Shown here: in pieces, positions 37,928-42,098 of the stretch
How the letters are laid out: the number at the start of each line of letters is the position of its first letter
Position numbering within the stretch: position 1 is the first letter of the stretch
Assembly (NCBI GenBank): GCA_019638015.1
Contig: JAHBUP010000001.1
Location: 1,146,424-1,210,423, forward strand
Direction of reading: 5' to 3'
Source of the DNA: Melioribacteraceae bacterium
GTDB taxonomy: Bacteria > Bacteroidota > Ignavibacteria > Ignavibacteriales > Melioribacteraceae
Length of the DNA: 64,000 nt
Program-made: the position numbers and the translations under genes
Notes under the pieces: model-generated
What the model was told of the DNA's origin: nothing
Seen by the model: only the letters and a program-made list of their open reading frames with translations
The model's database searches: none

Positions 37928-39487
37928 TCACAAAGGGATGTTTGAATGTTTCTTTGGAGGATTCACATCTTTCTTTGTTGCCAAAGATTGAAGTGCGCGA
38001 ATTACTCTGAACCTTGTATTCCTTGGTTCAATAACATCATCAATATAACCATATTTTGCGGCTGTATATGGAGTAGCAAATTTGCGCTTGTATTCTTCTT
38101 CTTTTTCACTAATGAATTTTATTCTTTCCTGCTCATCTTTAATTTCACTAATCTCTTTATTGTGAAGAACCTCTATAGCTCCGCGAGGACCCATAACCGC
38201 AATTTCAGCCATCGGCCAGGCATAATTAATATCTCCGCGCAAATGTTTCGATCCCATTACATCGTAAGCCCCGCCATATGCTTTTCTTAATATAACCGTA
38301 ATTTTTGGAACGGTTGCTTCCCCATAAGCAAATAATAGTTTAGCTCCATGCAGAATAATTCCACCATATTCTTGAGTAGTTCCGGGTAAAAATCCGGGAA
38401 CATCGACTAGTGTTAATATCGGAATATTGAATGCATCACAGAATCTAACAAATCTTCCGGCTTTTCTAGATGCGTTAATATCCAGCACACCGGCCAAGTA
38501 ATTTGGTTGATTGGCAACTATTCCAACTGAAACACCATTAAAACGTGCAAAACCAGTAATTATGTTTGGCGCGTAATGTCTCTGTATTTCTAAGAATTCA
38601 TGATAATCTGTAATTGCGTGAATAACATCTTTAACATCATAAGGTTTATTTGGACTTTCAGGAATAATTTCGTTCAATGAATCTTCAAGTCTATCGATAG
38701 GATCATCACACATTGCAAGTGGCGGATCTTCTAAATTATTTTGTGGAAGATAGCTAAGTATTTTTCTTATAAGTAGAATACCTTCCTGTTCATCGTCAGC
38801 CACGAAATGAGTTACACCCGATTTTGATCCATGAACCATTGCACCGCCAAGCTCTTCTTCAGTTACAGTCTCACCGGTAACAGTTTTAACTACTTTTGGA
38901 CCGGTAACAAACATATAGCTGGTGCCCTTAGTCATAATTGTAAAATCGGTTAGTGCAGGGGAGTAAACTGCACCGCCGGCGCAGGGTCCAAATATTGCCG
39001 AAATTTGTGGAATCACTCCGCTTGCCATAATATTTCTTTGAAATATTTCCGCATAACCGCCCAAACTTTTGACCCCTTCTTGTATTCTCGCACCGCCGCT
39101 ATCATTTATACCTATAACTGGAGCACCGACTTTCATTGCCTTATCCATTACTTTGCAAATCTTTTGGGCATACATTTCTGATAAGGAACCACCGAAGACT
39201 GTAAAGTCCTGCGAAAAAACATAAACTAGCCGTCCATCAATTGTACCGTAACCTGTAACAACACCATCTGACAAATATGTTTGCTTATCTAATCCAAAAT
39301 CTACAGTTCTATGCGATACGAACATATCGAATTCTTCAAAGCTGCCTTCATCGAGCAGCATATCTATACGTTCTCTTGCGGTATATTTTCCTTTTTGATG
39401 TTGCGACTCAATTCGTTTTTCACCGCCGCCTAGTCGCGCTTTTGCGCGCATATCCATTAACTCTTTGATCTTTCCACTGTGTGGCAT
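37928..39487 (-). CDS. mmdA: Methylmalonyl-CoA decarboxylase alpha subunit (carboxyltransferase, PccB/12S family)
   Basis: 519-aa acyl-CoA carboxyltransferase with the two crotonase-like halves and typical segments ([33 protein letters not shown]). Confidence 0.92.
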
Positions 39488-39496
39488 TTAACCTCC

Positions 39497-39520
39497 GTAA
39501 AATAGTGTAGAGTGATGAGC
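39497..39520 (+). repeat. Inverted copy (C) of the operon-internal repeat
   Basis: GTAAAATAGTGTAGAGTGATGAGC. Its reverse complement, CTCATCACTCTACACTATTTT, matches copies A and B apart from a 7-nt deletion and 1 mismatch. Confidence 0.8.
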
Positions 39521-39523
39521 TTG

Positions 39524-39537
39524 CCCGCCGCGGCGGG
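39524..39537. repeat. GC-only palindrome CCCGCCGCGGCGGG
   Basis: Perfect 14-nt palindrome in otherwise AT-rich DNA, 14 nt downstream of the four-helix-bundle gene stop. No U-tract follows it on the coding (minus) strand. Confidence 0.7.
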
Positions 39538-39550
39538 TAAAAGTATTGAG

Positions 39551-39949
39551 TTATAAACCTTTAGCAGTTTTGATGCTGCTGGTTAATATTCTTTCTAATT
39601 CATCACAGTCTTTAATTAAACTTTCGAATTCATTTTGATTTATTAATTCGGTCTCGAATAAAAGTTTTAACCAATATTCGGTTTCTCTGCATTCTTTTAA
39701 AGCAATTGTTAATTTATTGGCGAAATCATTTTTTGATGAAGCGCTTTGAGCTTCAGAAATATTAGCTCCGATTGATGTTCCGGATCTTAAAAGCTGTTTG
39801 TGAATTGGAATAAAAGTTAGATCATTTTTAAGAATGTACTTATAGAATTTTGTAATTCTAACAGAAAACTTAAATGCTTTCTGATATAAAATACTAGAAT
39901 AATATTCCTGCTTCTCATTAATCAAACTAAAATACTCTTCACTCATCAC
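39551..39949 (-). CDS. Four-helix-bundle protein (23S rRNA intervening-sequence protein / Avd-like family)
   Basis: Family hallmark SGTSIGANISEAQSASSKNDFANKLTIALKECRETEYWLKLL. About 130 aa. The start is GTG at 39949 or ATG at 39946. Confidence 0.85.
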   Translation of the reverse strand: MMSEEYFSLINEKQEYYSSILYQKAFKFSVRITKFYKYILKNDLTFIPIHKQLLRSGTSIGANISEAQSASSKNDFANKLTIALKECRETEYWLKLLFETELINQNEFESLIKDCDELERILTSSIKTAKGL

Positions 39950-39969
39950 TCTAAACTCTAAACTATTTT
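39937..39969 (-). repeat. Repeat copy B (epimerase / four-helix-bundle junction)
   Basis: Plus strand CTTCACTCATCACTCTAAACTCTAAACTATTTT. Matches copy A at 30 of 34 aligned positions. Contains the four-helix-bundle gene start and the epimerase stop. Confidence 0.8.
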
Positions 39970-40364
39970 CCGCACAATTCCGTTAAAACGCCGCCTGTAA
40001 ATTTTGGGTGAAGGAAACCGATATTTAATCCTTCGGCGCCTTTGCGGGGTTGTTTATCAATTAGTTGTATTCCTTTTGCTTCAACCTCTTTTAATGATTC
40101 GGCAAGATTATCAGTAGCAAATGCCAAATGATGAATTCCTTCCCCCTTCTTTTCAATAAACTTACCAATTGGTCCTTCGGGATCGGTAGATTCCAGCAAT
40201 TCAATTTTAGTTTGTCCAACCATAAAAAAAGCGGTTTTAACTTTTTGATCTGCAACTTCCTCAACTGCGTAACATTTAAATCCAAGCACATTTTCATAAT
40301 ATTTAATTGATTCTTCCAAATTTTTTACCGCAATTCCGATATGTTCTATATGTGTAATATTCAT
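39963..40364 (-). CDS. mce: Methylmalonyl-CoA epimerase (VOC/glyoxalase fold)
   Basis: IEHIGIAVKNLEESIKYY N-terminus, GEGIHHLAF, 133 aa, and operon context with the mutase and decarboxylase. Confidence 0.9.
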   Translation of the reverse strand: MNITHIEHIGIAVKNLEESIKYYENVLGFKCYAVEEVADQKVKTAFFMVGQTKIELLESTDPEGPIGKFIEKKGEGIHHLAFATDNLAESLKEVEAKGIQLIDKQPRKGAEGLNIGFLHPKFTGGVLTELCGK

Positions 40365-40385
40365 TTTAAGCTCCTTAATTAATTT

Positions 40386-40419
40386 CTACACTCATCACTC
40401 AACACTCTAAACTATTTTT
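40386..40419 (-). repeat. Repeat copy A (mutase / epimerase junction)
   Basis: Plus strand CTACACTCATCACTCAACACTCTAAACTATTTTT, immediately after the mutase stop. Confidence 0.8.
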
Positions 40420-42098
40420 CAGATTACCACATTTTCCTTGTACTCACCAAAGACATCTCTCATAACATTACAGATTTCGCCAATGCCTGCATAAGCTTTA
40501 ACGGCATCAAGAATAAAGGGCATCAAGTTAGCGTCCCCTTCTGCGGCAGTTTTAAGCGCGGCAAGTTTTTCTTTTACTACTTCATTATTTCTTTCAGAGC
40601 GAATTTTGTTAAGAAAAGCAATTTGTTCTTTTTGAACTTTTTCATCTATTCGTAAGAGTTCTCCTTTTGTTTCCTCTTTCTGAACAAACTTATTAACACC
40701 AACAACTACACTTTCTCCGCTTTCAAGTTGTTTATTGAATTGATATGCCGCTTTTTGAATTTCGAGTTGGACATAGCCGGCTTCAATCGCATTTGTAACG
40801 CCTCCCATAGCGTCAATTTTACTAATGTACTCTTCGGCTTCTTTTTCTATCTGATCAGTCAGAGCTTCAACGTAATAGGAGCCGGCGAGAGGATCTATAG
40901 TGTTTGCAACCCCGCTTTCATGAGCAACAATTTGTTGAGTGCGTAATGCAATTTTTACAGATTGTTCTGTAGGAAGAGCCAGCGCTTCATCACGTGAATT
41001 TGTGTGTAAGCTTTGAGTTCCACCAAGAACAGCGGCTAAAGTTTGAATGGTTACGCGTACTATATTATTATCAACTTGCTGAGCGGTTAATGTTGATCCG
41101 GCGGTTTGTGTATGAAAACGAAGCATCATCGATTTCTCTTTTTTAGCTCCGAATCTCTCTTTCATAATTTTAGCCCATAATCTTCTAGCGGCTCTATATT
41201 TAGCTACTTCTTCAAGAAGATCATTATGAGCATTAAAAAAGAATGATAATTGTCCCGCAAACTCATCGACATTTAATCCTGCGTCAATAGCGGCTTTTAC
41301 ATAGGCAATACCATCTGCAAGGGTAAATCCAACTTCCTGCGCCGCAGTTGAACCAGCTTCACGAATATGATAACCGGAAATTGAAATTGTATTCCACTTT
41401 GGTACTTCTTTTGCGCAGTATTCAAAAATATTTGTAATTAAACGCATCGAGGGTTTTGTGGGATAAATATATGTCCCGCGTGCTATATATTCCTTTAAGA
41501 TATCGTTTTGAATTGTGCCGGTAATTTTATCCGGGGTGACACCTTGCTTTTCAGCTACGGCAATGTACATTGCGAGGAGAACAGAAGCCGGAGCGTTAAT
41601 TGTCATTGAGGTAGAAACTTTATCTAATGGAATTTGATCGAATAATATTTCCATATCAGCAAGAGTATCAATAGCAACCCCAACTTTTCCAACTTCGCCA
41701 AGAGCCATAGGGTCATCGCTATCATATCCAATTTGGGTTGGGAGATCAAATGCTACCGATAATCCGCTTTGCCCTTGCGAAAGTAAATATCTGTATCGTT
41801 CATTAGATTCTTTAGCGGTTCCGAATCCGGCATATTGTCTCATTGTCCAGAATCTGCCCCGGTACATAGTTGGCTGAACTCCACGGGTAAATGGATATTG
41901 ACCAGGAAATCCTAGATTTTTATTGTAATCAGAGTCAGTATCGTTTGGGATGTAAATCGGTTTTACGTTTGTGAATGATTGTGTCTTAAATTCTTTTAAT
42001 CGTTCTGGAAATTTGGAAATGGATTTTTGGTAGATCGAACTATCCCAATTACTATAAGCCTCTTGAACTTTTGATTTAAGTGAATCTAAATCTTGCAT
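40419..42098 (-). CDS. Methylmalonyl-CoA mutase, catalytic (N-terminal, substrate-binding) subunit only
   Basis: MCM TIM-barrel segments ([50 protein letters not shown]). It ends at GEYKENVVI with no DxHxxG B12-binding domain. The ORF track extends to 42170, but the ATG at 42098 (MQDLDSLK) has an AAAGGA RBS. Confidence 0.9.

Follow-up and report, generated by a model that had tools for sequence, protein, structure and literature searches.

A four-helix-bundle gene enclosed by mirror-image heptad arrays in a methylmalonyl-CoA operon: a candidate intervening-sequence-like cassette in an mRNA

The methylmalonyl-CoA operon examined here lies in a 64,000-nucleotide stretch of contig JAHBUP010000001.1 from a Melioribacteraceae bacterium (assembly GCA_019638015.1; this whole stretch is the window, in which unprefixed positions are counted, and positions in the genome at large carry the prefix C1). 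Its genes follow on the minus strand in the order mutase, epimerase, an open reading frame (ORF) of 131 aa, mmdA, and the decarboxylase genes for the gamma, biotin-carrier and beta subunits. The third gene (39551-39946, minus strand, its 131 aa counted from ATG) encodes a four-helix-bundle (4HB) protein and stands between mirror-image arrays of 7-nt NNNGAGT units; we interpret the ensemble, with confidence only a little better than even, as an intervening-sequence (IVS)-like cassette of the PF05635/TIGR02436 family that resides in an mRNA and not in an rRNA. A sequence-only reading of this DNA had already proposed the family, and both profile scores exceed the curated cut-offs (PF05635, E = 7e-28, 97.4 bits against 33.8, residues 20-123; TIGR02436, E = 2.1e-31, 108.4 bits against 24); phmmer also matches the protein to PDB 2rld, an uncharacterised protein with a solved four-helix bundle (E = 5.3e-31, residues 15-129). 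Its candidate starts are ATG at 39944-39946 and GTG at 39947-39949; the gene is without a Shine-Dalgarno sequence of its own, and the heptad array encodes its first four codons (MSEE). Around it, all on the minus strand, lie the catalytic chain of methylmalonyl-CoA mutase, the first gene of the string examined (40419-42170; Pfam MM_CoA_mutase, E = 2e-236), the methylmalonyl-CoA epimerase, a glyoxalase-fold protein encoded immediately upstream (39963-40364; Pfam Glyoxalase_4, E = 2.4e-24), and the carboxyltransferase gene mmdA immediately downstream (37928-39487; Pfam Carboxyl_trans, E = 1.3e-200).

The three repeat copies that had been noticed in this operon, A, B and C, are present as placed, and comparison of all genomic occurrences of their core shows what had been missed, namely that the repeat is an array of degenerate heptads NNNGAGT (GTAGAGT, GATGAGT, ATTGAGT and so on). 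Copies A and B (39936-39969) are direct repeats identical at 31 of 34 positions (91%), one more than first counted. The 5' arm of the cassette, arm B (39929-39972, minus strand), reads as TTTAGAG/TTTAGAG/TGATGAG/TGAAGAG, and copy B within it takes in the end of the epimerase gene with its stop codon (AAAATAG, 39963-39969) as well as the 4HB start codon. Copy C, the 3' arm (39497-39520, minus strand; GCUCAUCACUCUA plus CACUAUUUU), is inverted, with ACTC orientation in the transcript, and its end is one base short of the mmdA Shine-Dalgarno sequence (GGAGG, 39492-39496). Inward of it lie a GC palindrome, CCCGCCGCGGCGGG (39524-39537), which sequence and an alignment gap mark as the core of a mini-element of about 30 nt nested in the 3' arm, and an inner arm segment, AAUACUUUU (39539-39547, minus strand), the partner of 39931-39939. 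Copy A (40385-40418, minus strand), a GAGT-heptad array standing alone, follows the mutase stop directly; it repeats arm B in the same orientation and could pair with arm C in place of B.

That B and C enclose the 4HB ORF together with the GC palindrome had been proposed from the letters, and folding bears it out. Repeat search recovers two stretches of B/C complementarity, 16 nt at 94% (39504-39519 with 39942-39957) and 18 nt at 89% (39496-39513 with 39955-39972). In the minimum-free-energy structure of 39485-39980 (minus strand), three helices close the ORF, an outer one of 7 bp, one of 13 bp and an inner one of 9 bp (AAGAGUAUU/AAUACUUUU); their arm B strands lie at 39962-39969, 39941-39953 (including the 4HB AUG) and 39931-39939, respectively; the GC palindrome forms a side hairpin branch. 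At -110.1 kcal/mol (z = -4.72), this fold was matched in stability by 0 of 100 shuffled sequences. The arms are thus complementary, and the ORF is closed in the predicted fold of the operon transcript. When 618 small ORFs were ranked by the duplex their flanks can form, the mmd copy came 9th, another 4HB gene 3rd and a third 190th, the other top entries being spurious antisense ORFs; this supports the pairing weakly. Neither promoter-like nor terminator-like sites were found at the cassette edges, arms and GC palindrome included, and an intrinsic terminator (a GC-rich stem followed by a U tract) was rejected, neither the arms nor the palindrome having a terminator-like site. A known Rfam RNA was likewise rejected, the covariance models of Rfam 15 giving two sub-threshold matches only (20 and 18.8 bits), and the PADLOC search for defence systems matched nothing.

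Comparison with relatives indicates that the cassette is an insert. The epimerase is followed by mmdA after 20-150 nt, with a spacer devoid of GAGT heptads, at 16 of the 19 loci read, and none of 30 relatives from other genera has a PF05635 gene near the epimerase. The proposal of an inserted cassette therefore holds, given these empty junctions. Its companion, that the cassette targeted or duplicated a motif of this operon, does not: copy A is a solo array, and the cassette borders show no target-site duplication. Copy A is identical in a relative at 98% (L025) and shortened to AAAAGCAGTGAAGAGTAAAA in one at 90% (L026), which argues for a lineage-specific expansion and not for a target duplication. 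The four closest protein homologues (98, 90, 74 and 73% identity) all sit at the epimerase-mmdA junction, and a survey of 151 Melioribacteraceae-like genomes from 52 genera found five further genera with a member of the 4HB clade directly downstream of the epimerase. The junction is filled in G034, G098, G157, G115 and G073 (genus g34), G124 (g5), G066 (g8) and G072 (g19), and in G044 (g44) the copy is a pseudogene with one stop codon. Inverted arms of 23-84 nt flank the gene in all six genomes covered by the arm scan (G157, G115, G124, G066, G072 and G044), and inverted heptads are also present in G034 and G073, read as L036 and L037; G098 lay outside the scan. The orthologous arms of Stygiobacter-type loci differ in sequence (GUGUAGAACGUAGAGU / ACUCUUCGUUCUACAC) yet still pair, and the GC hairpin is absent from them. 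The layout of gene plus inverted heptads thus recurs at the mmd junction, in the six scanned genomes and in Stygiobacter-type loci, and it recurs around other 4HB genes.

The same genera that hold filled copies also show the junction in decay. G137 carries a frameshifted copy; truncated remnants that retain their arms are found in G114 (residues 74-131), G136 (98-131) and G149 (39-83, then foreign sequence); G161 keeps an arm-only trace; and G152, G147 and G140 have clean spacers of about 40 nt. Losses take the form of ragged deletions, precise excision not being the pattern. In the G149 remnant (L091, G149:C14:53960-54500), the sequence that breaks the gene is GC-rich (AACCTCCTCGCCGCAATCCGCCCGAAGGCGGAGCGAGG...) and may be another mobile element. 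From these comparisons the insertion is old and vertically inherited in several genera, and not a recent event. Such a series recalls homing-endonuclease genes and inteins, whose life cycle runs through invasion, fixation, decay and loss: a single junction is intact, frameshifted, truncated or empty within single genera, and intact copies evolve under purifying selection. The 4HB protein differs in having neither a nuclease domain nor evidence of homing, and the pattern mostly fits vertical descent and loss.

Substitution patterns indicate that the 4HB protein is under purifying selection. The ratio of nonsynonymous to synonymous substitutions (dN/dS) is 0.081 between this genome and L026, 0.103 between this genome and L031, and 0.070 between L031 and L037. 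For the pair of this genome and L026, dS is 0.76 in the 4HB gene and 0.66 in the epimerase. Low dN/dS together with a dS close to that of the epimerase shows that the protein is functional and that, in the near lineage, the gene has diverged along with its flanks. The 3' arm, too, is conserved far beyond the neutral expectation set by synonymous sites: only 2 of 59 positions of this region differ from L026, one of them in the loop of the GC hairpin, against a proportion of synonymous differences of about 0.45 in the neighbouring genes. In the 5' arm, changes relative to L026 are confined to the variable NNN positions of the heptads.

Long residence has nevertheless been punctuated by movement. 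On a tree of 31 proteins of the 4HB clade, ten of them mmd-site copies, the latter need four state changes and form one clade in 0 of 200 bootstrap trees; the approximately unbiased test rejects their monophyly (difference in log-likelihood 36, p = 0.0012). The mmd-site copy of G066 has support of 100/98 for a grouping with two likewise GAGT-armed Melioribacter copies from other sites. Since the mmd-site copies are not one clade, the gene has moved between junctions at least once, a tree of this kind leaving arrival and departure undistinguished. In three genera, a related 4HB cassette with GAATG/GAGTG arms occupies a second junction (L053, L058 and L059, positions 1050-2320), between neighbours that read by eye as the C-terminus of a protoporphyrinogen-oxidase-like gene and a hemB-like gene; its flanks are conserved as much as the cassette itself, so that residence is long and movement rare. 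Cassettes of about 50% protein identity with the same layout and other heptad flavours occur in a Ruminococcus metagenome-assembled genome (MAG), a Sodaliphilus (Bacteroidota) MAG, Candidatus Muiribacterium and a rumen MAG. By sequence comparison, then, the history of the cassette is one of long vertical inheritance, decay through ordinary deletion and at least one change of junction. No transposase or recombinase was found in or beside the cassette, and a transposon or miniature inverted-repeat transposable element was rejected on three counts: no transposase, no near-identical genomic copies (the three others that score are 25-31% identical) and no target-site duplication. At another site, downstream of a gene with a C-terminus that reads by eye as short-chain-dehydrogenase-like, an uncultured Melioribacter MAG (L044, 1290-2050) carries a GAGT-armed 4HB pseudogene, disrupted by a 4-nt deletion and an in-frame stop; the same site is intact in L039.

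The heptads themselves extend well beyond this operon. Chance does not explain them: the sequence AAAATAGTTTAGAG is found twice against 0.03 expected, and the 4.1-Mb genome has 25 sites with the in-phase pattern (GAGT N3)x2 GAGT, where ten control 4-mers, tested on a single strand, gave 0-2; this is the strict count, a relaxed chain search giving 4-20 matches for control 4-mers too. The motif is therefore not private to the operon, as the sequence-only reading had it, and its sites number in the tens, far from the hundreds of unrelated sites that would mark a generic intergenic motif. The roughly 25 arrays fall mostly outside long ORFs, some of them at gene-free operon junctions. Period 7 is over-represented among tandem arrays in general: of arrays with 4.5 copies or more, Tandem Repeats Finder reports 28 with period 7, 15 with period 6 and 2 with period 8, those of period 7 coming in several sequence flavours. 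The genome holds six PF05635 genes, all six between co-directional neighbours at short gaps. Four of them whose flanks were read by eye, the mmd copy not being among these, have inverted arms of the flavours AAGAGGC, TTAGCWA and GTCATTT; the three other genomic 4HB genes that score against the mmd protein are only 25-31% identical to it. The mini-element of the 3' arm, ACTTTYA-CCCGCC-N2-3-GGCGGG-CAAGCTC (about 30 nt), has six genomic copies, all inside GAGT/ACTC arrays (C1:459312, 459344, 644099, 687353, 1048180 and 1185947, the last being 39524-39537 of the window); as the orthologous Stygiobacter-type 3' arm has an alignment gap in its place, it resembles a small element with heptad arrays as its insertion sites. 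Inverted GAGT/ACTC hairpins without a gene lie at C1:1643490-1643556, in the 107-nt gap between two co-directional genes and with a run of T after it, and at C1:3325514-3325602; they could be empty arms or landing pads.

Arrays of this kind raise the possibility that the heptad hairpins are host intercistronic elements, similar to repetitive extragenic palindromes or to the cyanobacterial short tandem heptanucleotide repeats (STRR), that set mRNA stability or cistron ratios, with the 4HB gene a domesticated passenger or regulator and not selfish. The excess of period 7 over period 8, the intergenic and partly gene-free placement of the GAGT arrays, and the long retention of the 4HB gene under purifying selection would all fit. 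We regard this as improbable nonetheless, given that the junction is array-free in most genera, down to the clean spacers of G152, G147 and G140, that the cassette has decayed repeatedly, and that the same package appears in unrelated phyla with other flavours (L040, L042, L043 and L045). The likeness to STRR and to the heptameric repeats of Xanthomonas and Nostoc (PMC4692102) is that of dispersed intergenic 7-nt arrays in several flavours, some with nested small hairpin elements; those repeats are described without an associated gene in the literature found, whereas here inverted pairs bracket one gene family.

Closer parallels lie within the protein family. In Coxiella burnetii, the 23S IVS is closed by a 28-bp terminal stem, has tandem GACAGAT heptamers before the S23p start and is excised by RNase III in vitro (PMC4990558); heptamer copy number varies between strains, the ORF is reported as decaying, and ORF-bearing 23S IVS are also known in Leptospira, Brucella and Xanthomonas (PMC4990558). 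The mmd cassette shares with these elements the protein family, an ORF set inside a long stem of terminal inverted repeats, tandem heptamers directly before the start (here four or five NNNGAGT units) in variable copy number, a weak or absent Shine-Dalgarno sequence and ORF decay in some lineages. It differs in three respects: the host is a protein-coding operon transcript and not helix 25 or 45 of 23S rRNA, purifying selection acts on the ORF (dN/dS about 0.1) while that of Coxiella is reported to decay, and cleavage by RNase III, demonstrated in Coxiella, is here suggested by analogy. An intervening 4HB gene within the rRNA of this genome, which had seemed worth looking for, is not there: the single 23S gene, 2998 nt long against a model of 2925 positions, holds neither an IVS nor a 4HB gene. 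The second parallel is Avd, the accessory protein of diversity-generating retroelements (DGRs), which belongs to the same Pfam family PF05635 (PMC10053308) and would make the 4HB gene a remnant or accessory of such an element. A profile search for reverse transcriptase (RVT_1, PF00078) over the whole 4.1-Mb genome, which is 100% complete, returned no match; there is no pair of template and variable repeats, the gene is flanked by heptad arrays, and its neighbours are metabolic. A DGR remnant is accordingly rejected and a DGR link, which the sequence-only reading had wished to see excluded, is refuted for this genome, leaving it a negligible probability.

We thus return to the IVS-like cassette in an mRNA as the reading that we favour by a modest measure. 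By analogy with the Coxiella IVS, the interrupted stem of about 29 bp in the polycistronic RNA would be a substrate of the host RNase III, for which the genome has a gene (C1:2087419-2087796), and would probably be cut. Cleavage would separate the mutase/epimerase RNA from the decarboxylase RNA, and would either release the 4HB message or silence it, its AUG lying inside the predicted 13-bp helix; translation of the 4HB protein would require an open stem, as might follow the termination of ribosomes at the epimerase stop inside arm B. Avd binds nucleic acid, and by analogy we consider such binding the likeliest function of the 4HB protein, which may act as an Avd-like oligomer with its own heptad arms as the most plausible target. 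Oligomeric states in the family are documented by PDB 2rld, with five chains, and in PMC4990558. In long-window duplex predictions, 11 of 13 independent cassettes have a more stable arm duplex on the sense than on the antisense strand; together with the co-orientation of all copies examined with their host operons, this weakly favours a role at the level of RNA.

Several observations weigh against that reading. The sense preference is weak and comes from the long-window duplex predictions, and the fold energy of the whole cassette is the same on both strands (-110.1 against -110.2 kcal/mol). Repeat search finds an A/C pairing of 26 nt at 85%, better than B/C and unseen in the sequence-only reading, and when 983 nt, reaching from the end of the mutase gene to mmdA, are folded, A:C outcompetes B:C, with 24 base pairs expected between C and A. 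With C preferring A in the longer transcript, the dominance of the B:C stem in this strain may be doubtful. We treat this predicted competition between A and B for C as a local peculiarity because copy A is lineage-specific. The Stygiobacter-type cassette has its AUG just outside the helix, so start-codon sequestration would not be universal. Within the GAGT flavour, cognate and non-cognate arm pairings are indistinguishable, as all arms cross-pair, and classical covariation support is therefore lacking. Arms also persist around dead genes (G114 and G136), which argues that they are independent of the protein.

The main rival explanation gives the arrays a role at the level of DNA, as terminal inverted repeats or portable homology through which the gene could enter, or drop out of, any junction already equipped with arrays of its flavour, by recombination or replication slippage at hairpins, the RNA stem being a by-product. 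The equal fold energy of the two strands would be expected under such a role, as would gene-free inverted hairpins and solo arrays (copy A included) at other junctions, the switch of sites, the range of arm lengths among orthologues (23-84 nt, as slippage-prone arrays would give) and the flavour shared by close paralogues at different sites (L038 and L039). It is harder to reconcile with the want of a transposase, recombinase or target-site duplication, with the genomic copies, none near-identical and those with flanks read carrying different arms, and with losses that are ragged and not precise. Through a long vertical history, moreover, the 3' arm has changed much less than synonymous sites, and every copy examined is co-oriented with its host operon. 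On balance we consider a DNA-level role unlikely, less so than host intercistronic elements.

A wider reading joins these strands, and we advance it tentatively, as a possibility that falls short of an even chance when all its parts are taken together. Inverted-heptad-armed 4HB genes would form one widespread IVS-type class whose natural habitat is the transcribed junction, be it an operon spacer or an rRNA helix; they would persist through harmless RNase III processing, arrive rarely, be kept for long periods by vertical descent under purifying selection, and then decay. Recognition by the 4HB oligomer of its own arms, as RNA or as hairpin DNA, would explain both their maintenance and their occasional movement. 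If so, the mmd junction, seen in every state from intact to empty, would be a model locus. The origin and purpose of ORF-bearing rRNA IVS have been a puzzle since the early 1990s, as has the function of the very large TIGR02436 family outside DGRs, and an rRNA-borne element is hard to study, being lodged in an essential host molecule and often carrying a dead ORF. The mmd cassette presents the same build at a dispensable position within a metabolic operon; its protein is clearly under selection, its arms can be mutated, and its relatives supply natural controls in the form of intact, frameshifted, arm-only and empty junctions. RNase III cutting, the setting of enzyme ratios and the binding of the protein to its own arms thereby become testable questions, and dispersed heptanucleotide repeats, for decades without a function, are linked to a specific gene family. 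A literature search found no description of PF05635 genes with inverted heptad arms inside operons. New here are the record, across many genera, of one junction filled, in decay and empty, the dN/dS and arm-conservation figures, the formal test of movement between sites, the competition of A and B for C, and the nested GC-hairpin mini-element.

Three further observations concern heptad arrays and PF05635 genes elsewhere. In Stygiobacter-type operons, a 215-aa ORF lies between mutase and epimerase (L031:1891-2538; also L028 and L032-L034), preceded by a heptad array at the position of copy A and followed by no inverted arm; it matched nothing in Pfam, NCBIfam or PADLOC. A 7-kb stretch of the present genome (C1:2355793-2362953) contains at least eight period-7 arrays, of flavours TTCTAAC, CAGCGTT, AAATGAT, TAATTCA, TGAGTAT and TTCTTAC, and among them a PF05635 gene with one TAA stop (2358130-2358444). 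Finally, PF05635 genes occur in clusters with a spacing of 1-3 kb in several relatives (G018:C2:819166-827892; G025:C57:171-6800; G009:C11:125715-127956; G008:C1:3507450-3513771), some of the clustered neighbours being near-identical and sharing one in-frame stop.

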